Source of the DNA: a virus | DNA length: 64,000 nucleotides | IMG/VR virus record: IMGVR_UViG_3300045988_108820 | Location: 32,529-96,528 of that record | Direction: 5' to 3' (one strand) | In this document: piece after piece, positions 12,749-61,842 of the stretch | Layout: the number at the start of each line of letters is the position of its first letter | Numbering within the stretch: the stretch's first letter is position 1 | Made by a program: the position numbers and the translations under genes | Notes under the pieces: generated by a model | The model's database searches: none | What the model was told of the DNA's origin: nothing | The model's input: the letters and a program-made list of their open reading frames with translations, nothing else

Positions 12749-12769
12749 ATTTAGTAGAAAGTAGTAAAT

Positions 12770-12805: not shown

Positions 12806-12815
12806 TATAACTTTG
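12785..12815 (+). promoter_or_regulatory. Bacteroidota-type promoter (TTG-N20-TAACTTTG)
   Basis: TAACTTTG lies at 12808-12815, 22 nt upstream of the portal ATG. The -33 element is reduced to aTTG. Confidence 0.45.
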
Positions 12816-12837
12816 TGAAGTTAAATAAATAAGAATT

Positions 12838-15246: not shown

Positions 15247-15247
15247 T

Positions 15248-15871: not shown

Positions 15872-15875
15872 TATT

Positions 15876-19034: not shown

Positions 19035-19283
19035 TATATAGATTTAAGAAATTATGTTTAAAAGCTTAAATTATAAATATAATAAAATGAATAGAAGAAA
19101 AGTATAGTAGAAAGGCAGTTTGAACCTATAAATTTGACTTAATTAATTATACTAACAATATTATTCTGTCAGGAGTTAAGTCAAGAGAAGACATAACTAA
19201 GTACAAAGACTATCTTGACAAAGTGAAAATAAAAGAAAAAAGTACCAAAAGTTCTTGGTAAATAAATATAATCTACTTACACT

Positions 19284-39466: not shown

Positions 39467-40758
39467 TGCAGTTAGTTATAGATAGTAAATTTAGACCATT
39501 TTCCTATGATGAGCTTGTAAAGCCTCTTACACAATATAAAGAGGCTTATGATAAAGTGGAAGCACAATATTCTGATTTAGTTTCACAAACGGAACAATGG
39601 AAAGATATTGCGAATAGAACAAAAAGTCCTGAAGCTTATGCAATGTATAGTAAGTATGCTAATGACTTAAATAATATAGTAGATGATTTTAGTAGAGGTA
39701 TGACTTTACAAAATAGAAGTCAACTTATGTCTATGAAGAGAAGGTATGCTAGTGAAATACAACCTATTGCAAGAGCTAGTGAAGCTATGAAAGAAGCTAA
39801 TGACCTTAGAGTAAAGTCTGGTCCTGATTCTATATTTGAGGTAGGAGAATATAATTCACTAGATCAATTTCTTCATGGTAAAACAGCTAATAATAGATCT
39901 CAAAGTAGAGATGCTCTTACTAAGAGAACAGCAGCTATGACAGAAGCTGCTATGGCTTCAGCAATGAAAGATCCAGAGTTCAAAAAAGCATTGGGAGATC
40001 AATATTGGATGTTAACACAGCACACAGGAGGTTCTTATGCAGACCTTAAAGCTGCTATAGCCAATAATCCTCAAGCACAAAATAGATTTGCTGAAATTAA
40101 AGCTCAGGTGATGAAAGAAGCTGGTTATGATAGATATGATGCTATGGGTAAGCAAGCTATAGAGAGTGCTATTAATACAGGTTTATATGCAGGTCTAGAT
40201 AAACCAGTTAGGTCATTCCAAGCTAATCAAGCTTATCTTAACCCATTACAAGCTGAACAATTGTCTCAAGCTAAGACTGAGTTTGAGTGGAAGAAACAAG
40301 CTAGAAGACCTCTACCTCTTGGGAATGGTAACTATCTTGACCCAGTTTCAGGTCTTACCTTTACTGAAGATAATAAAGGTAAGAGAACTTATAATTTTTC
40401 TGGTAAGGGTTCTGGTAAGGGTTCTAATAAGGGTAGTTCTGGAGATGGTGATAATAGATCTACAAGAAAAGTTAATAGATTAGCTAAACCTATAAAGGTT
40501 AAAGTGGGTGGTGGAAATCCTATAGAAGAATATGGTGATACTGTAGAACCTACTGGTACAAAGGTACCATTTAATAAGTTAACTGGTGCAGCTAGGGACA
40601 TTGCTAAACAATATATGAATGATGATACTTCAGAGGGTTATGATATTTATATTGAAACACCAGGTACATGGGAATGGCATTCTCATCAGAGAATGTACAT
40701 AATACCAAGAAAAGTTGAAAGTATTGATAAAGAGGATGAAGGTGAAAATGATATTTAA
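39466..40758 (+). CDS. tail / ejected internal protein (430 aa)
   Basis: ORF-track frame. Its ATG overlaps the upstream stop. It contains a GKGSGKGSNKGSSGDG low-complexity tract. Confidence 0.55.
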   Translation: MQLVIDSKFRPFSYDELVKPLTQYKEAYDKVEAQYSDLVSQTEQWKDIANRTKSPEAYAMYSKYANDLNNIVDDFSRGMTLQNRSQLMSMKRRYASEIQPIARASEAMKEANDLRVKSGPDSIFEVGEYNSLDQFLHGKTANNRSQSRDALTKRTAAMTEAAMASAMKDPEFKKALGDQYWMLTQHTGGSYADLKAAIANNPQAQNRFAEIKAQVMKEAGYDRYDAMGKQAIESAINTGLYAGLDKPVRSFQANQAYLNPLQAEQLSQAKTEFEWKKQARRPLPLGNGNYLDPVSGLTFTEDNKGKRTYNFSGKGSGKGSNKGSSGDGDNRSTRKVNRLAKPIKVKVGGGNPIEEYGDTVEPTGTKVPFNKLTGAARDIAKQYMNDDTSEGYDIYIETPGTWEWHSHQRMYIIPRKVESIDKEDEGENDI

Positions 40759-46700: not shown

Positions 46701-48487
46701 TGGATGCTAATGGTAATCCAATTAAGACTAAGCCAATAGAGAATAGAGATCCAAGTACAGAAGCTAATAGTGACTTAAACAAAGCTGACTATAAGAAGAA
46801 ACACTCTGTATATTATAGAGGTTCTCAATATAGAGAGAAGAATGGAAAGTGGTATAATACTAATTGGAAAGAAGTAACAGATCCTATATTACTTAGTCAA
46901 ATTAAATGGACTAGCTATATTAGAGTAAATGATTTGACTCCTAATTTAGTTGGTAATGATATGTTTGGTAATAAGAATAATGAATATTACATTATTAATT
47001 CTAATCCTACAAATGCAAAAGTGATTAAAGTACTTAGTAATGGTATTGTAGCTGAACTTAACATAAATGATTCTAGAGTAATAATAGAGAAAGTACAAAA
47101 TAGAGATATTCAAGCAACTAGAGAAAAAGCAGCTAAAGAAGAGAAAGAAAGACTTATGCATATTGAAAACTCTATGGACTATGATAATGCAGAAGCGGCT
47201 GGTGAGGGTGAAGATGTTACTAAGGTTAATGAGATTAGTGGAGCTAATTTAACTGAGGAACAAATTATTGCACAAGGTAATGGGGATTTCCAACTTGACT
47301 CTAAACCTCAACCAACAGATACTGAGCTTAAGGCACAAGCTATGGTAGATAGAATAACCTCTGATTCTCATGACATCATTCTAGATGAAAAGAGAGGTGT
47401 ATATGTAGATTCCACAGGCAAAGAAAGAGCTAGAGTTACATCAGTAATTCAAGCTACTGAAGGTACTGAGAGATTTGACCCAAATAGTCCTTGGATTACT
47501 CCTTCTACTAATGTGGGAACAGGAATGGATAACTTTGTAAGAGACTTCTTTGCTAGTAAATTGGGAAGTTTAGATAGCCTTCAGGAGAGGTATCCTAATG
47601 CCACAACTGCTCAACTACAAGCCTTTGAGAAACAGCTCCAAGAGTTCAAGGCTAAGCTTGATAAAGCTGGTTTAACAGTAGTTCCAAGGGATGTTACTGT
47701 CACTGGGGAAGTTGAAGTTACAGATACTAATGGTAAGAAATATAAATTACCTGTAGCAGGAACTCTAGACTTGCTTGCCTATGACAAAGATGGTAACTTC
47801 TATATCTTTGATATGAAGACAAATCATAGTACTCCTAATGCTAAAAAAGCTGCAAAGTGGAACAAACAGTTATCTTTATATAAGCAGTTCTTAGAAGAAA
47901 AGTATGGTGTTAGTGTAAAAGAGACTTCTATAATTCCAATAGAAGTGAAGTACCCAGCTCCTAAAGGATGGAGAAATGGAAAAACTGTATATAGAGCAGA
48001 TGAAAAAACTAATCAACTCTATTATCAGACAGAGGATAATTCTGGAGCATTAACCTCTAGTACTCCATATAGAGATGCTAAACCAATCTTACACTCTAAC
48101 ATACCAATCTCAACTAGTCCTGTAAAGATAGAGTATAGTTTACTAACTGATTCTGAGAAAGCATTATTATCTCCTGTGGTAGATGGAACATTTAATTCAT
48201 CTACAGGTACTACTAACATTGAGAATAAAAATAAGAACAAAGACATTAATAAGACAGGTGACATTTCACTAGCTGAATTACAAGCTAGTACAAATGCTAA
48301 ACCTACTAATGTAAGTTCTATGCTTAAAAATAGAAACTATAGTAAAAAGGTAAGAGGAATACTAAAAGAGAAAGGTTTTAATGGTAAAATGTCTGAGGTA
48401 GAAGCTTGGTTAAAAGAGCATAATATGCCTATAAGTAATATAAAAGACATAGATTCTTGGATTGATATGTTACAAAACTGTAGATAA
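40769..48487 (+). CDS. giant tail / ejected protein (2572 aa) with C-terminal PD-(D/E)xK nuclease domain
   Basis: A single uninterrupted frame. It has an N-terminal GLKGLKGLRGLEGL repeat, hydrophobic Ala/Gly-rich segments, a central E/K/Q-rich repeat tract and a C-terminal nuclease motif set (see sub-feature). Confidence 0.7.
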   Translation: MFTEILRGLKGLKGLRGLEGLSQQERDAWRRVNASKLEGKSAQYEDRLYANQQFVKKFGMDAFNSFNRDQRDYIYKDTIVNELYTDLYSPYTDKVGTDGKYIVDPNKGMGSEAEFKKYYAMDADSKLELIRSGWKPTPQIESELKKERDMKLAAINNSNAWVGAPSYAQGGVTASFIFREPIHEELSRSENNKILEGIYARDLKKREDELQPEIDDYYLNTIGKLSDSEVKSQFMKALTPSDTNIGNSQLLAFFHDGKNVEDEVKNFSIDDMRMYLAKFKVLNDRLGAGAAYTALDNYAKEYISDHQGNLTYAGLLAKDIGISVLSYTADKVNSIRQLFNTGKGKSVVWIDNKGNVVAPDQVKTAKNGDKYYINDDGEVTAIKQTKMSVTDLDYLGKDAEGNTRSDFLNNQFWADAEQYGTLDSDEIKQYKKLGASPYKVVYKPGDDSDLLYETIKMTSFAIADAASMLIPGYGETVGAAMQTTKAASLLSKAISTLGKGIYYTSKLAKAVQPTISATAIGHAYGRGVFGESLAQNMQQLEEYAYTFAQKNFHDNYYSNKQFKDQVDKDVQTEFNKLKNIQKAELNTSEGNKEIANQGLTDEALMEKAKQIVHSTYIDRGVKDIQNSDDYFDMVGKASESASDAAMTAAITDGAKYMLVNNFGYRKFLFNTAADRAASSARRLARNLSEKESRRLLFKSLIDGNKLKTIGKITASQAWGGAWTNFTDEMQSWGGKQINQDRFSSYLSGFYNGQASDDIYGAIDAVTSYFNGAMASLAKGTTWKAGFVGATGSLTSFAPNVASITTTIGTKRGREAWRKASLGERANMIFNNGVLNEYYGKKQGESEIKRYVDVVNKLLDEQDNFSILKSAVALDRASIDVSNQEDKNAITFLKAVNAISLLHQFQSDSGIKDQSSSRIKRWLKNKFGEGENTLGAVASQSTILTKALSEIEDLVNGNLSEESAKSYLSEYYAKNPTVEQSEDNNKRALEEMSQNAKTLQEAENTWQDINSKLDMVEKDRGSKISSNVRSRLLERAALDGFLSERLDALEDKISGNRINTSTESTAETWGTKEAIKEQVLSMERTERDLNKDIIVAKNRLDNATTKLNEYKKTHDIENLDDIATTEYIGLLNNVEAAKLQYEYTTNSMDKLKSRQEKMKAMSKEESSRVLSKNEILALPSEARARMLNDLNRSNYSKEQLEQIDALKNELTLKDPSLLQSIQDQARLLKQKNANASAYEMMLENPEAAYTEFEAQDGVDATISRDLFFRRYSESINNVIRKLSSLSNIKDISQDDIREAIYKNLRVLHPKILDYLDTTLPNEKGLEFIPLYSNEIVKAKEWSNMLTDISKAVDQMNFDDSTKKVFSDNIGNLIDKASTRKQAMDILEQVSNSTDVSNSDQANFRKLLNIINGVEEQRNATTTETKEEKKARQESQETQAKQEEKRVKDAEDKAQEAIEVTEKEASNDKNAQEAYQETEKEKSNEQNAQETYTETKQERRNQEEANKQLNTYEQTDEDIARDKAIEEQRKEGVDFSSGTIDFESPDWEKQVEQAEAEGHKIEEGFVSKDTTDVTDQGNRESMQPSEVLAGNYFHRYDVDALIEDKKEVVSYGRKGDILDRILKWFENAGIKLQEIVDTEVGDIMKTKPEVHLLYVNPKTTATDDACFSDTAMLAVEYTDKISKIHNNDRGGVITANGKQYLIIGTLGFNNREQQSNYVSVHNPAKGSRLKYFTANPNERFYILPTAHTEIAEMTSGRITRQLESDSEVKIRPVTELLSEPNRNPKGLKLQDLKWGIMFEDGLHYANVSPRNTVYPPRDTLSNLGAVFLLIETANGNYIPVAIRSTMLSDLQDGTLKTQLNNLFNELSSTKYSDRLGAINQLVKLLNINEKGDNILIGMDDKATVSTVKNGTVLRTFNLKDANFSRMDLINAIFELNPRVNITLSTLSDPVQLKMYAEAGALNTDIAKLGTSNASYTVYSMDANGNPIKTKPIENRDPSTEANSDLNKADYKKKHSVYYRGSQYREKNGKWYNTNWKEVTDPILLSQIKWTSYIRVNDLTPNLVGNDMFGNKNNEYYIINSNPTNAKVIKVLSNGIVAELNINDSRVIIEKVQNRDIQATREKAAKEEKERLMHIENSMDYDNAEAAGEGEDVTKVNEISGANLTEEQIIAQGNGDFQLDSKPQPTDTELKAQAMVDRITSDSHDIILDEKRGVYVDSTGKERARVTSVIQATEGTERFDPNSPWITPSTNVGTGMDNFVRDFFASKLGSLDSLQERYPNATTAQLQAFEKQLQEFKAKLDKAGLTVVPRDVTVTGEVEVTDTNGKKYKLPVAGTLDLLAYDKDGNFYIFDMKTNHSTPNAKKAAKWNKQLSLYKQFLEEKYGVSVKETSIIPIEVKYPAPKGWRNGKTVYRADEKTNQLYYQTEDNSGALTSSTPYRDAKPILHSNIPISTSPVKIEYSLLTDSEKALLSPVVDGTFNSSTGTTNIENKNKNKDINKTGDISLAELQASTNAKPTNVSSMLKNRNYSKKVRGILKEKGFNGKMSEVEAWLKEHNMPISNIKDIDSWIDMLQNCR
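47351..47968 (+). other. PD-(D/E)xK (RecB/Cas4-like) nuclease domain within the 2572-aa protein
   Basis: Ordered motifs: RVTSVIQ (res 2222-), GTGMDNFVRDFF, GTLDLLAYD (D2334), IFDMKT (D2348-x-K2350) and QLSLYKQF (Q2367-xxx-Y2371). Confidence 0.6.
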
Positions 48488-48529: not shown

Positions 48530-51500
48530 TTACTTTTGTAAATTGTTCTTTTCAAACACTTGGAATACACCATTATCAGTATCCATTTCATTAAGTTGTT
48601 CAATTTGTCCGTAAAATGGAATTAAATACTTTTGAATGTTTCTAAAGTATTTATTTTCCCCCTTATGCTTACCAGACTTAATTGTGTCATTAATATCTCC
48701 AATACCAGCAAATGGGTATAAAAAGGAATTAACTACATTAGATGCAGCTATAGGACTGTTTATTAGAGTATTCATTTCCATAGGAATACCCCATGGAGTT
48801 GAACCATTTATATCTGTAATAGCTCTCTTTGTTTGATATATCCACATCCTTGTCCAAAATTCTTTCTTATGGTCATCAGGTTCACCGAGAGCAAATGATA
48901 ATGTAAGAAGACTAGATAATACAAGTATTTCAGATAGTGCTCTTCTACAATTAGCTTTTTGCATAGGATTCATCTCATTCCAATGCAACATTGATTCTCT
49001 TTGAAACCTAAATATATCCCCAGCCATAGCATAAGCAAACTTAGAAGCTGTGTTATAATATCCCTCTCTATTTTCTCCAAGAGTAGCATCATAATGAGAA
49101 CTCCTAAATCTTCTAGAGTAGTGTTCAACCATCCATTGCCTTAAATTCATTATAAATCTACCAGCCATGTGTTGATGAATTAAACCTTTGTCTTCTTCAT
49201 TCATAGCACCATGGGTAGTTTGATTTACATATCTAATTCTTTTTCTAATCTTCTCTAAAAAGGCATCATCAATAGGAACTTCTTGACCATTATCATCAGT
49301 ATATGTAGCATTTTTATCAATTATTAGTTCAGAATTACCATCTACCTTATTACCTACAGAGAATACATCATAAAGGGATTTAGTTTTTCCATTTATTTTA
49401 ATCTTAGTATTATGTAATACAGCATACATATTTACAAAGTGAATTAAGTGTTCACCTGCCCCATAACCTATGAATGAGAAGTTCTTTCCCAAAAGATGTC
49501 TTAGTGGTCCTCTGTAATATCTTTGATGCTGTAATTCTCCAAAATTTTCATTTAATGGATCAAATATTTGTGCTAACAATACTGATTTACTATTAGTATT
49601 ATTAGTCATAAAGTCCATTATTCTTCCTACAGAGCCTTTAATATTATCACCAAAAACTTTCTTATGTGCCCATGCATAATCAATAGGATTATAAAACTCC
49701 ATAGCCCCAGACTCTACTAACATTTGAAGTTCACCTACTAGGTAGTTAGATATAGCTCCTTTAACATTAACAGCCAAACTCTTTAAAGAAGTATATGCAA
49801 GTAGATTCTTCAGTAACATGTGATATTTTCCAGGGTTTTTAATATTAACACCATATATAAATTTATCAACAAATCCATCAACAATACCAATAGTATTAGA
49901 ATTACTTGCAAAAGCTCTTAATTGTTTATAAACCCTAATACCTGTATCTTCTACCATATCTAGACTTTTATAGTTCCTTCCAGCAGCTACTTCTTGGTCT
50001 TTAATAAAATCAGCCATAAATTCAACAGTGTCTTTAATATTATTCATAGCCTCATAGTTTATTGCAGTTCCTGCTAAGTGTTGTATAGCACTAGAGAAAT
50101 CTTTCAGTAGTTCTCCTTTATCTTTAATCTTATTGATATAGAATATAGGTATTTGTCTAAATGGAGTATTATCTAATGCTCCACTAACTATGTTATATTC
50201 TTCTCCATTTACTATACCATTATTTGCATATCTATCATCATCTTCTCTTATAGTAGTAAAGTCTTTAAGTTTTGTTCTAATAGCTTTTATTAAATCTCTA
50301 AGACTTCCCTTCTTAACAGCAGCTTTCATAGCATCCACAAAGGATCTCCTAATTTGAGGAGGTACAAATTGTCTTTGAGCATAATTAGGTAATAAGGTTC
50401 CTAATTCTCCTTTTATTTGCATCATTGTTTCATAATACTCCTGTTGCTCACTAGTTAATTTAGGAAATGCTTTTCTATATGTGGAATTAGGAACTCTCTC
50501 AGTTCTGCCACTTACTAAATCTACAACTCTATCCTCTGTATTAGCTTCTTCCCAATTTTTTATAGCTTCATCTACAGATAGACCTCTAGTTCCTTGCCCT
50601 ATTAATCCTTTTCTAAAATTAGCTCTAGCTTTATAATAAGCAGTCCAATCAATATCACTTATGATATAACCATTAGGCTCATACATAAAGTCACTCTTAA
50701 AACCTGCTTTTCTGAGTTTATGTTCTGCTCTTCTTATTCTAAGAGATATAGCATTCATCTTAGCATCCCTAGAAGATTGAGCATCTCTTATAATGTTACC
50801 CATAGTAGCAATTAATGGGTTAGAAACTCTTCCAATACTATATAAATAGTCATAGATAGTAGAGTCTTTTTCAGCCATTTCAACTATATTAACTACAGAC
50901 ATGCCATTAGAAAGTTTATCTCCTAAATATTCAGTAGCTATAGTAGTCATAGTATTTAGTCTTAACTCCCTTAGAGTTTTATCATGTTTATCAAAGAATT
51001 CTACTAGTTTAGTAGCTTGATCTTTTATAATTTGTTTATCAGTATCACTAAGTCTTTCATCTGAGATAATACTATCAATATTAGACAATGATGTAAGAAT
51101 GCTTTTATAACCATCAGTAATAGATTTAACCTGCATTAGTGACTTAGCTATAGCAGAAGCTCTCTCTAGATTACTTCCAGATTGTGGAGTATTCTGGAGG
51201 ATTTTTTCCACTTCTTGTATTTGTGTAGATGCTTCACTAAGAAATCCTAGAATACCAACATAGTATCTATTACTATTAATTTCCTTCATAAGTGTATGCA
51301 AAGACTGTTCCAATCTAGTAGTTTCAGGGGTTATTCCCTGCTCTGCTTTCATCTTTTTGAGCTGTCTTTGTAATGTTATAGCAGCTTCTGATGCTGCTTG
51401 AGATAAACTCCTTATATTATTTCCAACTAGTACTACTTCATTAAAGTCTAGATTATATTTCTTATTTAGTGCTTTTATTGTATCTTCTATCTTACCTTCT

Positions 51501-52375
51501 TCTGAATTTCCAATTGCCTGTTCTACACTCTCTATTTGTTGTGAAACTGCATTAATATCAAGTCCATTATACTTTTTACAATTATTTAATGTAGCATCTA
51601 TTAAGGCTTTTTGAGAAGCTGTTACTCCACCAACTCTATAAGAGTCATATATTTTTTGAGCAACTTCTTCCAATGTGCCAAACATTTGCTTAAGTCTTTG
51701 TACTTGACTACTTGATTCATTAAATACTAGAAGGTCTTTAATCTCTTTTCTGTCAAGAAACTTATTATCAGTAAATTGTACATTATGCATTTGAAGTATA
51801 GCATTTCTAGCATTAGCTGCATTATATACTGATTTATTAACATCAGCAGATTCAATGTCTATACCAACATTATTTAAAGATTGTTTTAATATATCCCATT
51901 GTTGTAGTTGCTTTTCAACTTGAGCACTTCTTAATTGTGTTCTTGAGTTTCTCACATCTACTACAATATTAAATTTATCTCCTCCAGAATAGACAGCAGC
52001 TACAGTACCTTTACTAGAATTATTATGACGCTGTGCTATATCAAGGGCATCTTTAGCATTAGTATAATCAATAGGATTTCCTGAGAAATCAGTAGCTCCT
52101 ATTGTTCTTGATACTTCACTTACCTTTCCTTCTGTAGATTCCCTAATAAATGACATTACATCTAGGTACTTTTCTACATCTGCAATCTTATGTTCACCTT
52201 GGTCATTTCTAGAATAACCTAGGCTATCCATCTGTGCAGCTACCCCCGATTGGAGGTAGACTGCATAGATGTAATTAGCCTTTGGTCTATTCCCTGTGAC
52301 TTTAAGTAACTCCTTATAGAGTTTACTAGGTTTACCCTGTATTGTAGGGTATAATTCACATGAATTTTTAGCCAT
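48530..52375 (-). CDS. giant virion/ejected protein co-transcribed with the RNAP-type gene (1281 aa)
   Basis: Its ATG immediately follows the TAA of the 3115-aa gene with no spacer. A single uninterrupted frame. No catalytic motif recognised. Confidence 0.65.
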   Translation of the reverse strand: MAKNSCELYPTIQGKPSKLYKELLKVTGNRPKANYIYAVYLQSGVAAQMDSLGYSRNDQGEHKIADVEKYLDVMSFIRESTEGKVSEVSRTIGATDFSGNPIDYTNAKDALDIAQRHNNSSKGTVAAVYSGGDKFNIVVDVRNSRTQLRSAQVEKQLQQWDILKQSLNNVGIDIESADVNKSVYNAANARNAILQMHNVQFTDNKFLDRKEIKDLLVFNESSSQVQRLKQMFGTLEEVAQKIYDSYRVGGVTASQKALIDATLNNCKKYNGLDINAVSQQIESVEQAIGNSEEGKIEDTIKALNKKYNLDFNEVVLVGNNIRSLSQAASEAAITLQRQLKKMKAEQGITPETTRLEQSLHTLMKEINSNRYYVGILGFLSEASTQIQEVEKILQNTPQSGSNLERASAIAKSLMQVKSITDGYKSILTSLSNIDSIISDERLSDTDKQIIKDQATKLVEFFDKHDKTLRELRLNTMTTIATEYLGDKLSNGMSVVNIVEMAEKDSTIYDYLYSIGRVSNPLIATMGNIIRDAQSSRDAKMNAISLRIRRAEHKLRKAGFKSDFMYEPNGYIISDIDWTAYYKARANFRKGLIGQGTRGLSVDEAIKNWEEANTEDRVVDLVSGRTERVPNSTYRKAFPKLTSEQQEYYETMMQIKGELGTLLPNYAQRQFVPPQIRRSFVDAMKAAVKKGSLRDLIKAIRTKLKDFTTIREDDDRYANNGIVNGEEYNIVSGALDNTPFRQIPIFYINKIKDKGELLKDFSSAIQHLAGTAINYEAMNNIKDTVEFMADFIKDQEVAAGRNYKSLDMVEDTGIRVYKQLRAFASNSNTIGIVDGFVDKFIYGVNIKNPGKYHMLLKNLLAYTSLKSLAVNVKGAISNYLVGELQMLVESGAMEFYNPIDYAWAHKKVFGDNIKGSVGRIMDFMTNNTNSKSVLLAQIFDPLNENFGELQHQRYYRGPLRHLLGKNFSFIGYGAGEHLIHFVNMYAVLHNTKIKINGKTKSLYDVFSVGNKVDGNSELIIDKNATYTDDNGQEVPIDDAFLEKIRKRIRYVNQTTHGAMNEEDKGLIHQHMAGRFIMNLRQWMVEHYSRRFRSSHYDATLGENREGYYNTASKFAYAMAGDIFRFQRESMLHWNEMNPMQKANCRRALSEILVLSSLLTLSFALGEPDDHKKEFWTRMWIYQTKRAITDINGSTPWGIPMEMNTLINSPIAASNVVNSFLYPFAGIGDINDTIKSGKHKGENKYFRNIQKYLIPFYGQIEQLNEMDTDNGVFQVFEKNNLQK

Positions 52376-55300
52376 TTAGCAAAGTTTTTTATATTCTTCT
52401 TCTATAGTTTTTTCATCAAATTTAATTCCAAGAACTTCAAGTCTAGATTTCATGAACTTCTTAACTTGTGATTCAATAGCCTTCTTAAACTCATTGTCCA
52501 TATTTTTATAATTTTGGATAGTACTTTCTGCATCTGCAAGTGTTTTACCCTTCGTCATATATATTTGGTGTAATAAGTCTATTTGCTCTTGTTCACTATT
52601 AGTAGATTCATCTAACTTAGTTTCTCTATCCACATCTGGATTATTAATCTCTGATTTTGTATTATCTTCCAAGGATACTGAAGGAATCTCAAGAGGTTTC
52701 TCAATTCCATCAATGCTAATCTCTAGATAGTCTTTGTTACTTCCAAGAGGATTAATTTCTTTGTACTCAATAGATTCATCTTTTGATAGAACTTGCTGAT
52801 ATAATTTATCAACATTATCTACTCTCATTTTAAAATATTGAGTTTTCTGAAGATCTTTAACATCACTCTCTTTATATACTTCAAAGTTACCATTCTCAAG
52901 CTTTCTCATAACAAGATTTTTCTTTCTAGGAACAAGCTTGTTATTGTCCCAGTTATTTCTAATAAACTGGTCAAGGACTATCTCAGGTGTGCTACTTGGG
53001 AGTACTCTAAATGTATCAACATAACTACTAAGTCTCTCTTTCACATATACAGGAACTAAACTCATAAAGGTTTTAGGAGAAAATCCTATTCCAGCTCTAA
53101 AGAAACAGTACTTAAAGAGTTTTTCAGATAATTCTGGATTCACTCTATGAAGGTCAATCCAAGCACTACTTAGTCTTTCTTTTTGTAGAATATCAAGACC
53201 AGTAATATCAACCTGAAGAGTGGCTCTACCTCCTTTATCAGTTCCATATTTTATAGACTGAATGAGAAGATTATTTTTATACTGTTCTTTGTAGTTTTTC
53301 TCCATAAACTCCTTAGGGAACTCTGATATAGTTTTACCTAAATCATTTGATTTTACTACATTACCTGCTACAACAAGATAGGACTGATAGAAGTCACTTA
53401 AACTACTAAGAATTTTTCTATCACCGAGAATAACATCACCTATTGGATTTTCACTAGCATAAGTGAGGATATTTCTAAATCCTGTACTATTAGCTGGCAT
53501 ACTACTAAATAAGCCTTGTGCTATTCCTAATGTTTTTCTAAATTGATTTAGAATAGGATGTGCAAGGAAGATATCATTAATACTAATTTCCTCTCCATCT
53601 GAGCCAAGAATATTACTCTCAGAAGAAAGCTTTTCCATTTTATGCTCGGTGATTAAATTATCAATAATCAATGGACCCACTGCACTACTTATTGAGTTAA
53701 ATCTAGTAGCAAATGTAGGCATCCTCATAGCGTCAGCAAGTCTTTGAAAGTTTCTAAATGACTTAAGAACTTTGTATTCAATTCTTGAATCCCTTGATTT
53801 TACACCTTTAATTAATTGCTCTCTAGTAAGTTCTTCTTCATTAAGTAAACTATTCTCATCAATATTTAGATCTTTCTCTATTTTCTTTATCCTATTTTCA
53901 ACTACTTTACTTAAAGAAGTAAATCCTGTGATATTTTCACTACTAAATTGATTAAGAACATCTGATATAACTCTTTGAGATAAGAAGAGAGCAGCATCAT
54001 CAAAAGGCATTCCAAGTCTTACAAGAGTATTAAGAATATTAGCTGTATTACTATTAATATTCATCAAGTTAAGTACAGGATCTTTAACAGCATCAGCTGC
54101 ACTAGCAACTAAACTACCAAGTACTTTACCAACTGATTGTCCACTATTATCAAGTCTAACATCAATAGGCATATTACCTCCAAAAGTCATATCTGCTACA
54201 GTAAATGGTCTAGTAAGGTTACATGCATTATCTACATTCATCATATATCCTTCATTCTCTATTACTGCATGAGCAGTTCTATTAACTGCAAAGATACCAA
54301 TAAGAGAACCAGCAGCACTATTTTGTTTGTAGAATTGTATATGAGTATCAATAAACATAAGATTCTTATCTTTACTACTTAAATCCTTGAGTTCATCAAT
54401 AGACATCTTACTTAATTCATCATAGCTTTTGTCAGTAGTTCTAAGAGCAGTTACAAGATAACCCATTCTCTTTTGTGGGTCAAAGCCACCTGGATTTAGC
54501 ATTTCTGCACAACTAGTTTCATGTGTTAATACCTCATAAGTCATATCAACAATCTTATTATTTCTATAAGTTCTTCCTTCTGTAGGTTTATTAACAGTAA
54601 AAGCATTTTGTAAATATAACTTAAGTAACTTACTATAAGAATTACTAGGAATTGACATGAATCCTTCAGCTGTCTTTTGATTAACTAGAGAGGCTCTATC
54701 AAATGGGTCTTCAAGAAATTGTCTAACCAAATCATTAAGTTTGCTTTTAACATTATAACTTAGTTTCCCTTTTTGAGACTCAACTAGAGAATCATATAAT
54801 ATTTTATGAAGAGCAGATTTAGTAATTTTATTTTTAGAAATACTGTAATCTTTTCTCATAAGATACTCCTTATCAACATCAAAGTCTGAACCTGTGAGTA
54901 GTGTAATATCACTAGGTAACATAATACCATCACCAGCTTCTCTAGGTAAGAAACCCACAATCTTCAAAGGAGCCATACTATATTTAGCTTCAGTAGGAAT
55001 TCTATAGCCAATCATCTTTAATAAATCAGGGTCAAGAGCTTCCAATGCTTCTATGCTAATGTTACCATTCTTATCAGCGAATTGACTGAATAGATTGTTA
55101 GCATATATAGGAGCAAATACCTCAAAGTAAGCAATACCTCCTTGATTTTCTTTTATATAATCTTTATAGGACATTGTACCTTCAGAAACCTTTAATCCTT
55201 TGTATTTAGCATTAAATTTATCAGTTTGAGAAAGTTCTTTCTTTATAGGATTTTTTTCATATTCTGCTCTTGTTTTTAATAAACCTCCATTCTTGTCTTT

Positions 55301-58300
55301 AAATCTAATATTAAGTTCTCTAGAAGTACCAAAGTTAGTAACCTGTACAACAGGACCACCAGCTATTTCTTGTTTATTAACTCTATTCTTTATAACAGAG
55401 TTGACTAATTGTTCAACTCTTTTACTCTGAATAGGATCTCCAAGAGGTATTCTAAATCTACCATTTTCATCAACCGAACAAGCTTGTAAGAGATCTATAC
55501 CATATCTAGGACTGGATAATATTTCTCTTTGTAATATCTTACTAAGAGCTATATTTCTATCTTTTGTATTAGTACTTTGAAGACCTAGAGCACTCTCTAA
55601 ACCACTTATACTATCTTCAATATTATCTGCAATAGTTTGTTCATACTCAGACTTAAATTCATCAGCAGATATTTTTTTACCTTCAACTTCATAGGTTGCA
55701 TCATTTCCAAAGCTATCTTTTGTAGCAAGTTCTGATACTACAATATATCTCAATTGGGAGCCATGAACTTGCTCATGATTCTTAAAGTGCTCAGGCACTT
55801 CTTGTTGTAAACAATAGTCTTCAAAAGGTAGCTCTTGAACATAAGTTTGATTATATTTACCTGTTTTGGTATCTATAGTCACATCCTCAAGTTTTCCAGT
55901 CTCTTGGTTAGTTCTTTGGATTGTTTTAGGAGCTGTCTCATATATACAAGCCTCCATAACAGCTTTGGCTTTAGCTTCTCCATTGACATCATTAATATAT
56001 TTATTAAGATTAATTCTGCCCATTAAGCCAGACTTTACAGTTGACTCAAACTGAACAGTATCAATACCATCTGTCTTATAGTTACCATCTTCATCATAGT
56101 GACTTTCTTCCATTACTTCATAGATTGCTCTAAGTAGGTTTGGTCTACCAGTGTTCTCATTTTGAAGAATAGCATCAGCCATTATAAGAAGATATTCAGA
56201 GTTTTTATTCTGTACAGGTATTTTAAGCTTATCAAGGGGAGCATTAGGTACACCAGAAGACTTTTCTATTTGACTATAAACAAAGGGCTTTAGTGGTTGA
56301 AACGCTACACTTAGATCACTATAATTGTAATCTCCCTTTCTAAGTTTTTGATATATTTCTTCTGCCTTTTTACTCCATTTACCAAAAATAAATGCTTTCT
56401 TTCTATATGATGTTGGAGAAGAATATCCTTGAGCATCTGCTACATTTATTTTTCTAAATGCACCATCTTTACCTACAAGAGAGTCTTTTAATACTCTATA
56501 ACCATCTTTTTCAGCTTCTGGAGCTTCAGCTATCTTTCTATCAAAAACAATTGATACATTGTCAATGATATTAGATACAAAGTCATCCCAGTCTTTAAGA
56601 TAGAAGGTTCTTTCCTTTCCATCAGAGACTTTACTACCTTCATAGTCTGTAGCATCTACATTACCTCTTATACCTGGAGCATGGATTTGTGCTAATCTCT
56701 TTTGTAAATCTTCTGCATCCTTATAATAGGCAATATCAGTTACAGTTAATTCCATTATGTTCATAGCTGCAAAAGTATCATTCCAAACAAAGTTTTCAAG
56801 ATTAGATTTAATCTCTTCCTCTGTAGTACCAATACCTGAGATTTTCTTAGCTCCTTCCATAAGACCAGAGTTAATCCAATTCTCTACAATGGATTTAGCT
56901 CTAGTGTCTAAAGTATCAAAGATAGCTTTATTAGCAAGTTCATATAACTTAGCTTCATCTACTTCTTTACCATTGATTTTATTGTTTATAAGTTTACCTA
57001 ATTCACTATTCTTTTTATCTCCAGTAAGATAATCATTCATAAAGTCAAGGAAGCAGAACTTTTTACCATTTTTATCAAAATTCTTTATGAATCTTGGACC
57101 TTTACTATCGAGGTTTCTCATCAGTACGGTTTGGATTCTACTTAACTCTTGATTAAATATGTCCATCATACCATCTGTAATAGTTTCTCTATAGTTAATA
57201 CCTCTTTCACTATAAAACCTTATGAATTCAGAAGATGGCTTATTAGATAACATAGGCACCCTAAACCAAGCAGGTACTCTTGATTGTTTATCATTTGCAC
57301 CTTCTGAAAAATACTCTGTAAGTAATGAGAGTGCATACTCCATATCACTCATATTCTTCATATAATTGTGCTTATTGAAACTGAGTTGTACTTTATGTTT
57401 AAAAACACTTCTAGCTTTACTATCAGTAGCTAAAGTTCTAAGCCAACTGTTTCTCCAACCTCTTTCAATATCTGTGCCTTCATGAAACCATGGTTGGTTT
57501 GCATACTCCTCGGTCAGAAAGTCATCAAAAGCCTGTCCCTCTTGACTAAATTTTTGCATTAACTTAGACATATAAGAAGGAGTTACATAACTTTGATACA
57601 TTTTACCATTATCATAAAAGGCAGAAATTGCAATATCTTCTAAGTGTTCTGTGATAGGCTTTAAGAACTCTCTCATATTACCATTGATACTATCTTTAGC
57701 CTTAAACTTGAAAGGTTCATAAGAAGCATTATCAAGATTATTTTCAAAAGATCTTATCATGTATCCTAAAGCACTATACATCTTTTTAAAAGTTTCACTC
57801 GTAAGATTACTCTTTACCATATCAGGAGTTACATAATAACCAAATAAGCTTGAAATATAATCTAAAGTATTAGCAACTTCATCTTTATCAACTTCTTTAG
57901 ATAAATCATATCCTGTATGCCTAAACTTTTCAAGACTGTCATAAGCAGATTTAAGTTCTCCAAATGATTTTTTATTTATACCCTCAGTAGTAAATAATGG
58001 ATGTTCTCCTATTTTATACTGAGTTGTGACTTGCGTCATGGCTTCACTAAGAGCAGGATTTTCATTTACTGAAATACTTTTATATTTTCCATCTTCTTCA
58101 ATTACTGTTGAATATGATTGAAATGGCTTAAAGAATGTTCCGTAGAATTGACTCTGAAAATCAGTCTCTTTACCAGAAGTATCAGATAATCTATCAATAA
58201 GTTGTTTAACCCAAGGATTATCTTTCTGCTTTCCTTGTAATTTAGTTATTGCACTAGCCAAACTTAATGAGCCTTGTGTCCATCTAAGTATAGAATTAGT

Positions 58301-61300
58301 TGCTTCTCTTACATTTATTCTTTCATTGATACCAAACTCTGATTGTACATTGTTCCCATCTTTATCAAGAATATAACATTTAAGTAAGGCTTTCCTAACC
58401 AATTGAGACATAGTTTCAAGTATATCTTGACATCTAGATTCTAATTGCCAATGCTCTTGAAGATTACCTTCAATTTCTTCCACACTTGCCTGGTCATTAG
58501 ATTCATTAAAGTTATCTGCATCACCCACAAGATCTTCATTGACTTCATTAACTTTCCCATCAGGTGTGGATACTATACTAAAATCTTCAAAGTTTAAGAA
58601 TGAACTTTGTGCAAGTAACATTACAGCTTGCCAATTATCAGTAATAGCAGTAGCTTTATCTATTGTATCAAAGTTGTCAAAGTCATTATGTTCAGGAGAA
58701 AACTTCTGTCTGCACATTTCAATTATATTGTCAACTCCAATAGTTCTAACTACATCTGCTCTAGTCATAGAGGCAAAATCTTTGTCAGTACCATCCTTAT
58801 TTTTAAACCTATCACCATAGATAGTTTTAGCTGCCTCTGGATTTTCTTGCAATTCAGTAATATGGTCTGAAATCCAATATACAGCTTGTTCAGCTATATG
58901 TCTTACTTCTGTTGCAGAAAGGAGACTATCTCCTAAAAGGTTGTCTATTTGTTGCATCTTATCTTGTTGTTTTAATGTATATAAATCTTGTTCTTTTTCT
59001 TTTCTATCTATCTGTGAAGTTTCTTCTTGAGTACCATCTTCAGTATTAGCTACTTGAACATTAGTAGTAGTTTGTAGATTATTATCCTGAGACTCTTGCT
59101 TATTTAATCTAATACCTTTCTCTAGTTCTATTCTATGAATAGCATCTAAAGTAGCTCTCTTCTCTACTTCTATTTTGTTAGGTGAAAGCCAATCTATTGC
59201 ATAAGGAACTAAACTACCATAAGTATCTCTTATATCTCCTTCATAATAGTCTTTACCACTATCCTCCCAATACTTATGACTTAATTCATGATATGTTACT
59301 AAATTTTTAGCATCTTCATCAGTTTGAATTATTTCTCTTAGTCTTTCTTCTGTATATCCTTCCTTTGCTAATTCTTTAAAGACTACCCTTTTTTGTTCTG
59401 ATGTGCTACTAGGGACTTCACCTTTAATATATTTAAAAACATCTTCTTTACTAAGATTCCTAGCAACTACTATATTACCACTCCTAGTAAATCCAAGTTT
59501 TCCATTTAATATTTTCTCATCAGTAGTTTCATTTATAGGAGCTTGAAATTTAGAGTACTCTTCAAAAGTTCCATCACTCTTAAGATAATCACTACTACCT
59601 TTGGAGTAATCATAAATACCCCCTCTTAAGTTTTTATTAGCAGAATTAAAATACTCTTGTGAAATAGAAATAATTTCCTCTAAAGCTGAATCTTTTATAT
59701 CTATTCCTTGAGATTTAAACATTTTATTAAATAAATTAGTAAGATAATTTATAAATCTCTTAAAAGCATTTTCTTTCTTACCTAACTTTATTTTACTTAA
59801 TTCTACTTGAAAGGCTCTATCTGTTAAAGCTACAGCTACAAATTCTTTAGCATTAGTTAATCCATACCACTCAGTTCCCTTTAATTGTTCTTCACATTGT
59901 AGATATAGATTCCATACATTATTAGAAAATTCTGTTTGTACTTTATTAAAGTTCTTTATTTTAGACCAAGAAGGGTGATAATTTAAAATCTCAGCAGTAA
60001 CAGCATGAATTAATTCGTGAGTTAATACCTTCATAATACCTCCCTTTACATTAGCTTTATCATCTGTCATTAGATAATCTAATAATAAAGCAGGATTAAT
60101 TCTTATTGTAGCTGTTCTAAAATTATCTTGTTTTCTACTAGCTATACCATCTAAATTAGAGTCTATAAGTATATTTATAGGAATATTATTATTTCTTAAT
60201 ATCTCAACTACTTGTTTAAATAATTGGTGATATGGATTAGTAGGTTTTACTTTACTTAAAAACTCATCAATTAAAGAGTTATTTAGAGTAATACCTTCCT
60301 GCTTTAATATAGCTATAGCTCTCTCTCCCTCTATAGCATTCTCAATAGAGTCCCCTGATATATAGTCTTCCCTATTAAGCAATTCTAACTCCTTATTAAT
60401 TTCTTCTTGTCTTGAGAAAGCTTGCTTTTTATGCCATTTATCTATTAAATTATCAGCTAACTTAGGGTTTTTTAATTCTGATAAAACATTATCTAGTTCT
60501 TTTAAATTGTGAATTATATTACCCTTATCATCAACTTTTATTCTAGTATTATAGCTTTTATTAAATCCAGCTGCCTTTCTTCTTAATGCTCCTACTTTTC
60601 TTTCTAATGGAAGATTTTTAAAGTCTTCTTTAGCTATATCCATTAGACTTAGAACATTACTAAGATTTTCTCTCTCTTTCTCTATAGACTTTATTCTATC
60701 ATCTATTTTACTCTGTAATTGTGTCTTAGATTCTCCCTTATAAGAAATTCCAAGAGCTGATTTTTCTTCATTATAATAATCTATTCTATCATCAGTTCTG
60801 GAGAAGGTTCCTATATTACTCTCAGCTGATTTAATTTGATTTGGGGTTGGAACAACTATTTCTTCATATCTCCCCTCAGCACCTGAATATAACACACCAT
60901 CATATTCTTCCGTATTACCTATTCCCCTATTAAAGTTTTCAGCTAATTCCACATTTTTAATAGCTTCTTTCATACTTATATTAGGATCTGTCCCTGCTCT
61001 TAATGGTTTTTTTATATTTACAAATAATTTCATTATATTACCATATTGAGCAGCTTTATTCTCTACGGAAGATAAATATAATCCTTTACCATAGTATCCA
61101 TCATCTGTGTTTTTACCAAACATTTTAGTATCTAGTATATTCCACTTACTATTGGTACCATGATAAACAACTAAAGGTTCACCATTTTCATCTACTACTT
61201 TAGAAGCATTCTCTGGGTCATTTTCCCAATCACCAAACCAACCTTTAAATTCTTTAGTTCTAACCTGAGCATATTGTCTTTCATCAAGATTAGACTTTTT

Positions 61301-61723
61301 ACCGTTAGGAGCTAATAAATTACCTTCTGAGTCTCTTTTAGCATTAGATAAAATATACTTATATTCTGACTCAAATGTGGGATTTCCTATCATTAAATCA
61401 TAAGTTCCATTTTTTCTCTCTACAATAGAAATACTATCCTTTCCAAATATTTTAACTGCATTGTTATACTCCTCATTAGCTAAGATTAGTGTGGGAAAGT
61501 TAATAGGAGATGAGTATTGCTTCTCCCATACTTCAATCATATTATGGTCTCCAGTAAAAGACTTTGGCTTGAGTAAATTATTTACTTCTTCTGCACTTGG
61601 AAATCTATCACTATTCTCAGAATTTTGTATCTTATGAATAATTAGTTCTAGAGCAGATGAGGATATATCTACCTCATCAAGTAAAGTTTTAAACTCTCTT
61701 GAATTAATATTAACACAACTCAT
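52376..61723 (-). CDS. giant virion-packaged RNA-polymerase-type protein (3115 aa) with N-terminal ART-like and HExxH modules
   Basis: DFDVD at residues 2280-2284 (LLTGSDFDVDKEY) matches the DxDxD metal-binding motif of two-barrel RNAPs, as reported for crAss-like virion RNAPs. The N-terminal effector-like domains are listed as sub-features. Confidence 0.7.
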   Translation of the reverse strand: MSCVNINSREFKTLLDEVDISSSALELIIHKIQNSENSDRFPSAEEVNNLLKPKSFTGDHNMIEVWEKQYSSPINFPTLILANEEYNNAVKIFGKDSISIVERKNGTYDLMIGNPTFESEYKYILSNAKRDSEGNLLAPNGKKSNLDERQYAQVRTKEFKGWFGDWENDPENASKVVDENGEPLVVYHGTNSKWNILDTKMFGKNTDDGYYGKGLYLSSVENKAAQYGNIMKLFVNIKKPLRAGTDPNISMKEAIKNVELAENFNRGIGNTEEYDGVLYSGAEGRYEEIVVPTPNQIKSAESNIGTFSRTDDRIDYYNEEKSALGISYKGESKTQLQSKIDDRIKSIEKERENLSNVLSLMDIAKEDFKNLPLERKVGALRRKAAGFNKSYNTRIKVDDKGNIIHNLKELDNVLSELKNPKLADNLIDKWHKKQAFSRQEEINKELELLNREDYISGDSIENAIEGERAIAILKQEGITLNNSLIDEFLSKVKPTNPYHQLFKQVVEILRNNNIPINILIDSNLDGIASRKQDNFRTATIRINPALLLDYLMTDDKANVKGGIMKVLTHELIHAVTAEILNYHPSWSKIKNFNKVQTEFSNNVWNLYLQCEEQLKGTEWYGLTNAKEFVAVALTDRAFQVELSKIKLGKKENAFKRFINYLTNLFNKMFKSQGIDIKDSALEEIISISQEYFNSANKNLRGGIYDYSKGSSDYLKSDGTFEEYSKFQAPINETTDEKILNGKLGFTRSGNIVVARNLSKEDVFKYIKGEVPSSTSEQKRVVFKELAKEGYTEERLREIIQTDEDAKNLVTYHELSHKYWEDSGKDYYEGDIRDTYGSLVPYAIDWLSPNKIEVEKRATLDAIHRIELEKGIRLNKQESQDNNLQTTTNVQVANTEDGTQEETSQIDRKEKEQDLYTLKQQDKMQQIDNLLGDSLLSATEVRHIAEQAVYWISDHITELQENPEAAKTIYGDRFKNKDGTDKDFASMTRADVVRTIGVDNIIEMCRQKFSPEHNDFDNFDTIDKATAITDNWQAVMLLAQSSFLNFEDFSIVSTPDGKVNEVNEDLVGDADNFNESNDQASVEEIEGNLQEHWQLESRCQDILETMSQLVRKALLKCYILDKDGNNVQSEFGINERINVREATNSILRWTQGSLSLASAITKLQGKQKDNPWVKQLIDRLSDTSGKETDFQSQFYGTFFKPFQSYSTVIEEDGKYKSISVNENPALSEAMTQVTTQYKIGEHPLFTTEGINKKSFGELKSAYDSLEKFRHTGYDLSKEVDKDEVANTLDYISSLFGYYVTPDMVKSNLTSETFKKMYSALGYMIRSFENNLDNASYEPFKFKAKDSINGNMREFLKPITEHLEDIAISAFYDNGKMYQSYVTPSYMSKLMQKFSQEGQAFDDFLTEEYANQPWFHEGTDIERGWRNSWLRTLATDSKARSVFKHKVQLSFNKHNYMKNMSDMEYALSLLTEYFSEGANDKQSRVPAWFRVPMLSNKPSSEFIRFYSERGINYRETITDGMMDIFNQELSRIQTVLMRNLDSKGPRFIKNFDKNGKKFCFLDFMNDYLTGDKKNSELGKLINNKINGKEVDEAKLYELANKAIFDTLDTRAKSIVENWINSGLMEGAKKISGIGTTEEEIKSNLENFVWNDTFAAMNIMELTVTDIAYYKDAEDLQKRLAQIHAPGIRGNVDATDYEGSKVSDGKERTFYLKDWDDFVSNIIDNVSIVFDRKIAEAPEAEKDGYRVLKDSLVGKDGAFRKINVADAQGYSSPTSYRKKAFIFGKWSKKAEEIYQKLRKGDYNYSDLSVAFQPLKPFVYSQIEKSSGVPNAPLDKLKIPVQNKNSEYLLIMADAILQNENTGRPNLLRAIYEVMEESHYDEDGNYKTDGIDTVQFESTVKSGLMGRINLNKYINDVNGEAKAKAVMEACIYETAPKTIQRTNQETGKLEDVTIDTKTGKYNQTYVQELPFEDYCLQQEVPEHFKNHEQVHGSQLRYIVVSELATKDSFGNDATYEVEGKKISADEFKSEYEQTIADNIEDSISGLESALGLQSTNTKDRNIALSKILQREILSSPRYGIDLLQACSVDENGRFRIPLGDPIQSKRVEQLVNSVIKNRVNKQEIAGGPVVQVTNFGTSRELNIRFKDKNGGLLKTRAEYEKNPIKKELSQTDKFNAKYKGLKVSEGTMSYKDYIKENQGGIAYFEVFAPIYANNLFSQFADKNGNISIEALEALDPDLLKMIGYRIPTEAKYSMAPLKIVGFLPREAGDGIMLPSDITLLTGSDFDVDKEYLMRKDYSISKNKITKSALHKILYDSLVESQKGKLSYNVKSKLNDLVRQFLEDPFDRASLVNQKTAEGFMSIPSNSYSKLLKLYLQNAFTVNKPTEGRTYRNNKIVDMTYEVLTHETSCAEMLNPGGFDPQKRMGYLVTALRTTDKSYDELSKMSIDELKDLSSKDKNLMFIDTHIQFYKQNSAAGSLIGIFAVNRTAHAVIENEGYMMNVDNACNLTRPFTVADMTFGGNMPIDVRLDNSGQSVGKVLGSLVASAADAVKDPVLNLMNINSNTANILNTLVRLGMPFDDAALFLSQRVISDVLNQFSSENITGFTSLSKVVENRIKKIEKDLNIDENSLLNEEELTREQLIKGVKSRDSRIEYKVLKSFRNFQRLADAMRMPTFATRFNSISSAVGPLIIDNLITEHKMEKLSSESNILGSDGEEISINDIFLAHPILNQFRKTLGIAQGLFSSMPANSTGFRNILTYASENPIGDVILGDRKILSSLSDFYQSYLVVAGNVVKSNDLGKTISEFPKEFMEKNYKEQYKNNLLIQSIKYGTDKGGRATLQVDITGLDILQKERLSSAWIDLHRVNPELSEKLFKYCFFRAGIGFSPKTFMSLVPVYVKERLSSYVDTFRVLPSSTPEIVLDQFIRNNWDNNKLVPRKKNLVMRKLENGNFEVYKESDVKDLQKTQYFKMRVDNVDKLYQQVLSKDESIEYKEINPLGSNKDYLEISIDGIEKPLEIPSVSLEDNTKSEINNPDVDRETKLDESTNSEQEQIDLLHQIYMTKGKTLADAESTIQNYKNMDNEFKKAIESQVKKFMKSRLEVLGIKFDEKTIEEEYKKLC
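54872..54886 (-). other. DFDVD candidate catalytic Mg-binding motif of the two-barrel RNAP
   Basis: The minus strand reads GAC TTT GAT GTT GAT (D2280-F-D-V-D2284). Confidence 0.6.
59276..59290 (-). other. second HExxH motif (HELSH, residues 812-816)
   Basis: The minus strand reads CAT GAA TTA AGT CAT in the context LVTYHELSHKYWED. This may be an ArdC/SprT-like Zn-peptidase module, unverified. Confidence 0.35.
59774..60166 (-). other. zincin-like metallopeptidase module (HELIH, residues 569-573)
   Basis: VLTHELIHAVTAEIL, with the motif nucleotides at 60005-60019. Domain borders are approximate. Confidence 0.45.
60809..61351 (-). other. ADP-ribosyltransferase-like domain of the polyvalent-protein type (residues about 125-305)
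   Basis: LLAPNGKKSNLDERQYAQVRTKEFKGWFGDWE...SKVVDENGEPLVVYHGT...YGKGLYLSS...YEEIVVP matches the recurrent lead-in and H..Y..E pattern I recall for ART-like domains of phage and conjugative-element polyvalent proteins. Confidence 0.5.
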
Positions 61724-61748: not shown

Positions 61749-61780
61749 CAAAGTTAATTAAATTTTGCTTAGTTATCAAA
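61749..61780 (-). promoter_or_regulatory. Bacteroidota-type promoter (TTTG-N20-TAACTTTG on minus strand) for the RNAP-type operon
   Basis: The reverse complement of 61749-61756 is TAACTTTG and of 61777-61780 is TTTG. It lies 25 nt upstream of the ATG at 61723. Confidence 0.55.
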
Positions 61781-61810: not shown

Positions 61811-61842
61811 AAAAAAATAGGGAAGAGTATAAACTCTTCCCT
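61811..61842 (-). terminator. rho-independent terminator after 61849..62067
   Basis: The minus strand shows AGGGAAGAGT, loop TTAT, ACTCTTCCCT, followed by ATTTTTTT. Confidence 0.7.

Follow-up and report, generated by a model that had tools for sequence, protein, structure and literature searches.

The stretch of DNA analysed here (the window) comprises 64,000 nt, given as one strand, of the IMG/VR virus record IMGVR_UViG_3300045988_108820 (positions 32,529-96,528), and its minus strand carries a giant gene of 3115 codons that starts with ATG and is translated without an internal stop. An open run of this length has a chance probability of ~1e-103, calculated with a per-codon stop probability of 0.073 from the base composition of that strand. 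The predicted N terminus (MSCVN...) aligns with residue 1 of 128 homologues, which supports the annotated ATG start, and at the other end the TAA stop abuts the ATG of a second large open reading frame (ORF) of 1281 amino acids (aa), the junction reading TGC TAA ATG GCT. A sequence-only reading of the window had described an unbroken minus-strand frame whose stop touches that ATG, and had taken its product for the packaged RNA polymerase (RNAP) of a crAss-like phage, made late in infection from a host-type promoter. Translation and junction bear out the description of the frame. The analysis shows that residues ~880-3115 are a homologue of the crAss-like virion RNA polymerase (vRNAP), as supported by sequence and fold, and that an N-terminal extension of ~880 aa beyond the characterised enzyme, phi14:2 gp66, precedes this polymerase body.

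When the whole protein was searched with phmmer against all PDB chains, the only match was 6VR4_A, the DNA-dependent virion RNAP gp66 of Cellulophaga phage phi14:2 (E=3.1e-22). The best stretch paired residues 2228-2946 with gp66 1323-2042, and weaker upstream stretches were collinear with it; here IGYRIPTEAKYSMAPLKIVGFLPREAGDGIMLPSDITLLTGSDFDVDKEYLM is paired with IGYRIPNQGQSSNDPLQIVGILPEAMGDTIVAYTEIPTKTGSDFDIDKMYVM, and GSDFDVDKEY is aligned to GSDFDIDKMY of gp66. A MAFFT alignment with gp66 covered 1875 columns at 20.2% identity and placed the gp66 N terminus at residue 880; a short match of residues 148-187 to gp66 48-85 (3.7 bits, i-Evalue 41) was not significant and was rejected. Comparison by blastp with gp50 of Bacteroides phage crAss001 gave E=7e-142, with 28.7% identity over 1416 aligned positions, and a tblastn search using residues 1151-3115 as the query retrieved 140 phage records, many of them annotated as putative RNA polymerase or RNAP catalytic subunit.

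The predicted fold leads to the same protein. An AlphaFold2 (AF2) model of residues 1620-2780, built on 48 homologues, was confident (mean predicted local distance difference test score (pLDDT) 81.5, predicted template modelling score (pTM) 0.74), and in a Foldseek search against the PDB its sole significant match was 6VR4 (E=4.1e-33, probability 1.0, 1210 columns, template modelling score 0.58 normalised to the query). In the non-significant tail of that search, most entries were largest subunits from multisubunit RNA polymerases, and the N4 mini-vRNAP fold was not matched (3c3l_B, E=0.19; 9pnq, E=0.75; probability 0.02-0.03). The model spans residue 2280, around which the sequence-only reading had placed a double-psi beta-barrel (DPBB), and the significant fold match, the phmmer match and the active-site conservation described below together uphold its assignment of the giant ORF to the packaged crAss-like RNAPs. 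It had also named gp66, QDE-1 and YonO as proteins for comparison. The first was matched and the other two were not, so the wider two-barrel kinship rests on the published gp66 analysis, in which the QDE-1-type relationship is known through superposition (bioRxiv 10.1101/2020.03.07.982082).

The protein contains a single DxDxD, D2280-F-D-V-D2284, within LLTGSDFDVDKEY. About one such motif is expected by chance at this size and with this aspartate-rich composition, so that the motif alone is no evidence and its weight comes from alignment and conservation. The body was aligned across 17 sequences, namely the query, 14 diverse full-length homologues, crAss001 gp50 and gp66, and 69 columns proved invariant, D2280, D2282, D2284 and K2285 among them; within the 48 homologues, SDFD[VI]DK is kept in all site-spanning sequences but one. 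The interpretation of DFDVD as a conserved two-barrel RNAP motif therefore stands, as it lies on the gp66 DFDID and its aspartates do not vary. The landmarks of gp66 (bioRxiv 10.1101/2020.03.07.982082) all map collinearly onto the protein (Table 1). K1812 and K1840 are likewise invariant and align with gp66 K1012 and K1027 in a beta-rich region before the connector; by position and invariance they are candidates for the basic residues of the beta-type barrel, and the first barrel region thus holds conserved basic residues of the kind that had been sought for a DPBB. R2241, in IGYRIP, is also invariant. Further along the chain, the AF2 model has one 31-residue helix at residues 2458-2488, coinciding with the mapped bridge helix, and the trigger loop region has invariant D2544, K2547, P2549, N2555, N2557 and T2560, with R2569 one residue beyond it.

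Table 1. Features of the polymerase gene and its surroundings (positions in the window; residues of the 3115-aa protein unless stated otherwise).
Feature	Position	Strand	Residues	Basis or remark
Whole polymerase gene	52376..61723	-	1-3115	orthologue of crAss001 gp50 and phi14:2 gp66, with N-terminal extension
M0 leader	61334..61723	-	1-130	at residue 1 of 128 homologues
ART-PolyVal ADP-ribosyltransferase, including FKGWFGDW lead-in	60776..61318	-	136-316	Pfam PF18760
M2, rare module	60374..60775	-	317-450	nine homologues only
M3, gluzincin-like module	59573..60343	-	461-717	H569, E570, H573, E627 invariant
M4, second HExxH module	59078..59560	-	722-882	alignment; AF2
Polymerase body	52379..59086	-	880-3115	collinear with entire gp66 (2180 aa)
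Cleft-blocking domain			1042-1105	maps from gp66 196-233; alignment
DPBB1 region	55820..56446	-	~1760-1968	K1812, K1840 invariant; beta-rich in model; boundaries approximate
Connector between barrels	55349..55822	-	1968-2125	gp66 1095-1238; helical in model
DPBB2 region with catalytic loop	54833..55144	-	~2194-2297	phmmer, AF2 model, alignment
Catalytic DFDVD (D2280, D2282, D2284)	54872..54886	-	2280-2284	aligned to gp66 1361-DFDID-1365
Bridge helix	54263..54349	-	2459-2487	maps from gp66 1529-1559
Trigger loop region	54020..54136	-	2530-2568	maps from gp66 1598-1636
Bacteroidetes-type promoter-like site	61749..61780	-		TTTG-N20-TAACTTTG; 25 nt before ATG
Terminator-like hairpin	61819..61842	-		10 bp stem, T7 tail; closes upstream small gene
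Downstream 1281-aa ORF	48530..52375	-		orthologue of crAss001 gp49 and phi14:2 1421-aa protein
Convergent 2572-aa ORF	40769..48487	+		position of crAss001 gp47; PD-(D/E)XK domain at its residues 2284-2395

An exhaustive HMMER search and searches with local profiles resolved the N-terminal extension into modules, each distributed independently of the others. The leader M0 stands at residue 1 of the 128 homologues whatever follows it. Neither crAss001 gp50 nor phi14:2 gp66 has it, and its role may be that of a signal for packaging or ejection. The ADP-ribosyltransferase (ART) module behind it matches Pfam PF18760 over the whole model (residues 178-307, model positions 1-140 of 140, E=9.5e-20, 72.2 bits against a gathering cut-off of 31.2). 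Among 338 relatives, 91% keep its H188, in VVYHGT, while the position of Y216 is 64% Y and 18% F, and Y216 and E288 lie in other conserved blocks; these three residues are the candidate catalytic triad. The domain is 42.5% identical to one at the C terminus of a different cargo protein, from an Intestiviridae phage, which is annotated 'RNAP associated protein fused to zincin protease'. The lead-in to the ART domain, FKGWFGDWENDP...VVDENGEPLVVYHG, occupies 61155-61313 on the minus strand (nt 411-569 of the ORF), and its DNA is 79-82% identical to that of the distant crassviruses cr271_1 and ctcc615, which are otherwise without nucleotide similarity to the gene. It could be that this likeness reflects cassette exchange or an unusually strong constraint.

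Two further modules carry an HExxH motif. In M3, 15 sequences with identities down to 24% all keep the motif and its distal glutamate (H569, E570, H573 and E627), the signature of gluzincins. Searched against the PDB, a profile of M3 matched 9sfn_G (E=9e-6) and 8vb2_A (E=4e-3), which are internal virion and ejection proteins of phages and not characterised peptidases. The profile also matched, with E=3e-21, the zincin region of the 1421-aa protein (12261-16526 of the phi14:2 record) encoded downstream of gp66 in phi14:2. That zincin domain has been proposed as a possible activator of the RNAP (Drobysheva et al.). The corresponding downstream proteins of the present phage and of crAss001 have no HExxH, and the zincin module thus sits in different cargo proteins across crassviruses. 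In M4 the invariant residues are Y-H812-E-x-S-H816 (Y-H812-E-L-S-H816 in this protein), D821 and E-x-R-A-T. Its AF2 model (pLDDT 90.2) begins with three strands, after which come helices, one of them ending in the HExxH, and in the BFVD viral structure library only crassvirus orthologues were recovered. The module occurs solely in polymerase proteins of crassviruses. M4 is a possible minimal zincin.

The extension is variable across crassviruses. Of 56 full-length relatives taken from a representative library, most keep M0 at the N terminus, and the first residue of the polymerase body lies between about 50 and 3650, the variable region before it spanning ~0 to ~3300 aa. The domains that intervene in different relatives are ART-PolyVal, DUF1848, NADAR, MoCo-carrier/SLOG and PD-(D/E)XK, and some relatives have, in the same position, a RecD/Pif1-like helicase with a Zeta-toxin-like (kinase) domain. 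Since the region varies so much in size and holds other enzymes elsewhere, it looks like an injected effector cassette. We tentatively suggest that the vRNAP may serve as a delivery vehicle, in which the leader (~120 aa) and the body (~2200 aa) would bracket swappable enzymes in many crassviruses, these enzymes acting before phage expression.

The architecture can be set beside known systems. Phage phi14:2 belongs to the same family, Steigviridae, and its gp66 is homologous over all 2180 residues, sharing the DFDxD-K, the two first-barrel lysines, the connector, the bridge helix and the trigger loop; its polymerase gene is likewise followed by a homologous large gene. However, gp66 lacks the leader, the ART-PolyVal domain and the HExxH modules that make up the 880 extra residues here, and the zincin domain of phi14:2 is in the neighbouring 1421-aa protein, whereas in the present phage it is in the polymerase chain. 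The crAss001 layout is the same, with gp50 followed by gp49, convergent with gp47, after cargo 1, cargo 2 and muzzle. The crAss001 gp50 itself ('putative RNA polymerase', 2412 aa) is ~700 aa shorter, with ~100 residues before the body, and has no Pfam-detectable domain and no M0, ART or zincin. The nearest relative, in the uncultured phage cr116_1, has the same order of modules (ART, M2, zincin, M4) and a body of 90% amino-acid identity, while its N-terminal third is more diverged (64-67%) and has two insertions.

More distant likenesses concern the cassette. Polyvalent proteins of phages and conjugative elements were reportedly defined by Iyer, Burroughs, Anand, de Souza and Aravind in 2017, and are said to be the source of the Pfam ART-PolyVal family. 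They are giant, multidomain, DNA-delivered proteins in which ART-PolyVal occurs beside metallopeptidase-like modules, as it does here, and the swapping of helicase, NADAR, Zeta-toxin-like and nuclease domains among the relatives follows their pattern, but the present cassette is fused to a two-barrel RNAP and is bounded by a crassvirus-specific leader. With T4 Alt, a capsid-packaged and injected ADP-ribosyltransferase of a different ART clade that acts before phage expression, the likeness is a functional analogy only. The same is true of the N4 vRNAP, an ejected, T7-like single-subunit polymerase of 3500 aa whose C-terminal domain carries an HExxH subdomain (PMC13434306). Neither protein has detectable homology to the present one.

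Upstream of the gene, the terminator-like hairpin separates the preceding small gene from a site that resembles a Bacteroidetes-type promoter. The pattern TTTG-N19-21-TAnnTTTG has six matches in the window against 1.66 expected, a number reached in none of 100 shuffles. Five of the six are intergenic and upstream of co-oriented genes: three directly before tRNA genes of the tRNA clusters (848-878 on the minus strand, 5251-5282 and 6720-6750 on the plus strand), one before the capsid-gene operon and one before the polymerase ORF. The sixth match, at 48604-48634 on the plus strand, runs antisense to the 1281-aa ORF that contains it, shortly beyond where the convergent 2572-aa gene ends, and is probably due to chance. 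The site before the polymerase gene is conserved in cr116_1, 27 nt upstream of the orthologue, and a promoter function is plausible and fits the literature, as sigma-70-like motifs are found repeatedly before the RNAP and tRNA genes of related phages, and the RNAP gene of phi14:2 is of the middle class, read by host RNAP from sigma-70-like promoters (bioRxiv 10.1101/2020.03.07.982082). The host-type promoter put forward in the sequence-only reading is thus sustained as a pattern that is enriched in the window and conserved in the relative. As to the timing given there, 'late' should be 'middle or late'.

A course of events can be outlined from the orthologues. The gene would be transcribed at middle or late times by the host RNAP from the promoter-like site, probably together with the abutting 1281-aa gene, and the gp47-like and gp49-like proteins would accompany the polymerase into the capsid. 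In crAss001, gp47, gp49 and gp50 have been detected in virions by mass spectrometry (PMC10172136), and the phi14:2 homologues, including gp66, are annotated as structural from proteomics (KC821624). The polymerase would then be ejected ahead of, or with, the DNA. For phi14:2 it has been reported that gp66 transcribes the early genes in a rifampicin-resistant manner and must enter with the DNA (bioRxiv 10.1101/2020.03.07.982082), and the injected polymerase of the present phage would similarly transcribe early genes, resistant to rifampicin and without the host polymerase. Judged by domain content only, the first ~880 aa would be an add-on cassette, entering the cell in one chain with the polymerase. 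On arrival the ART would modify a host target, in functional analogy with the injected T4 Alt. The zincin-like module would act on the polymerase itself, by processing or activating it or by taking away the cleft-blocking segment, which inhibits gp66.

The source phage is a crAss-like member of the Steigviridae from the human gut. Pfam matches in the window include the crassvirus major capsid protein (23357-24862), a P22-like portal (12838-15246), the muzzle protein (32155-36633, E=1.6e-289), cargo protein 1 (36740-39466) and cargo protein 2 (39466-40758). Among deposited genomes the closest is that of the uncultured Pamirivirus faecium phage cr116_1 (Steigviridae, Asinivirinae), whose nucleotide sequence is 86.8% identical over 89% of the ORF. 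Eight metagenomic contigs encode an identical protein; one of them, of 99,371 bp, comes from a gut metagenome of the Hadza. Compared with crAss001, the 1281-aa ORF corresponds to gp49 (E=9e-56) just as the polymerase corresponds to gp50, and the 2572-aa ORF corresponds more weakly to gp47, the PD-(D/E)XK nuclease domain being the sole detectable overlap; outside that domain the 2572-aa ORF has no relatives in the PDB, Pfam or PHROGs. The 1281-aa ORF, like its crAss001 counterpart, shares only the C-terminal ~900 aa with the phi14:2 1421-aa protein. Neither of the two giant neighbours contains a DxDxD or has a sequence relative in the PDB, so that the 3115-aa ORF, not its neighbours, is the polymerase. 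Elsewhere in the window, fifteen tRNA genes lie in two divergent clusters (651-2715 on the minus strand and 5422-6916 on the plus strand). A 1083-aa ORF in the packaging region (9497-12748 on the plus strand) has LAGLIDADG_3 and Hom_end domains at its residues 388-481; they probably mark an intein or an inserted endonuclease in a large conserved gene, possibly the terminase.

The catalytic loop is a site of insertion in relatives. In cr116_1 an insert of ~840 nt (positions 18428-19270 of the cr116_1 record) interrupts the polymerase gene (gp_24128 and gp_24130) within the catalytic DFD|VD, between D2282 and V2283. The insert encodes a LAGLIDADG endonuclease, and on either side of it lies one half of a group I intron (Rfam RF00028, E=8e-7 and 4e-6). 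Among database homologues, many stop at GSD|, GSDFD|, GSDFDV| or about residue 2242, and these differing end points near the catalytic loop suggest several insertion sites. The window holds the uninterrupted, intron-free allele, which would be convenient as a full-length expression template.

The best explanation overall, with a probability of roughly 0.9, is that the gene encodes a virion-packaged, injected RNAP, orthologous to gp50 and gp66, with an N-terminal extension that would be an add-on cassette. A number of points weigh against it. Searches of Pfam and PHROG gave no curated family covering the polymerase body, identity to gp66 is about 20%, and QDE-1 and YonO were absent both from the top 50 Foldseek matches in the PDB and from the phmmer search against it. 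No exact match to the promoter pattern lies directly upstream of crAss001 gp50, and packaging, polymerase activity and promoter use are all drawn from orthology. With respect to the cassette, no ART-PolyVal member is known to have been characterised biochemically. The M3 profile matched no curated Pfam peptidase family above threshold, the sub-threshold matches being SprT-like, M90, M91, M13 and DUF3810, and M4 had no fold match in the PDB by Foldseek and no PDB sequence or Pfam match either.

One alternative interpretation, which refines this explanation and seems to us possible without being the favoured outcome, is that the protein is a polyprotein. Cleavage of the precursor by the zincin-like module or modules, either within the capsid or once the protein has been ejected, would release a free ADP-ribosyltransferase along with protease fragments and a polymerase of ~2200 aa, the size of gp66. 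The body, starting at about residue 880, equals gp66 at its full length, and a hydrophilic low-complexity stretch at residues ~880-930 (DNNLQTTTNVQVANTEDGTQEETSQ...) parts M4 from it; in addition, the module boundaries act as independent units across homologues, and cleavage of fused forms, with the zincin possibly activating the RNAP, has been proposed by Drobysheva et al. Note, however, that there is no known cleavage site, and that the polymerases of crAss001 (gp50) and phi14:2 (gp66) function with no zincin in their own chain.

It is less likely, and on balance doubtful, that the N-terminal 880 residues are a non-enzymatic packaging or ejection scaffold, with the ART inactive and the HExxH modules as structural relics, comparable to those of internal virion and ejection proteins in other podophages. 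The only PDB relatives of the zincin profile are indeed internal virion and ejection proteins, M0 is always at residue 1, the place expected of a signal for targeting or ejection, and the Pfam peptidase families were matched below threshold only. Nevertheless, the metal-binding H, E and H and the distal E of M3 persist unchanged in the 15 sequences despite identities as low as 24%, the ART domain scores well above its Pfam cut-off with H188 kept in most relatives, and a scaffold would hardly explain why unrelated enzymes (helicase, NADAR, Zeta-toxin-like kinase and nuclease) occupy the same position in relatives. A large structural or ejection protein with a chance DFDVD and no polymerase activity, for which the expectation of about one DxDxD and the lack of a Pfam or PHROG polymerase match could be cited, is excluded by the significant 700-residue alignment that places the motif on the catalytic DFDID of a solved, biochemically active enzyme, by the Foldseek match to 6VR4 and by the invariance of the active-site residues.

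As an enzyme the polymerase adds nothing new, being a further member of a well-described family. The class was predicted in 2018 and its structure was solved in 2021. The crassvirus transcription block has been described as large multidomain proteins (Yutin et al.), and 'fused to zincin protease' is already an existing annotation, so that the N-terminal effector-like cassette would be the only part that goes beyond the descriptions found. In the open-access literature no paper was found that links an ADP-ribosyltransferase or polyvalent proteins to the crassvirus polymerase, and absence there is no proof of novelty.

Crassviruses are the most abundant viruses of the human gut. If the vRNAP does act as a delivery vehicle, the enzymes of the cassette would arrive in the host in covalent linkage with the enzyme that is first to read the phage genome, and might, for example by ADP-ribosylation of host RNA polymerase or of defence proteins, reprogram or disarm the cell. 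If the modules are active and injected, the transcription enzyme of crassviruses would carry swappable effectors for the first minute of infection, and this would matter for host takeover and defence evasion in Bacteroidales as well as for the activation of the self-inhibited polymerase.

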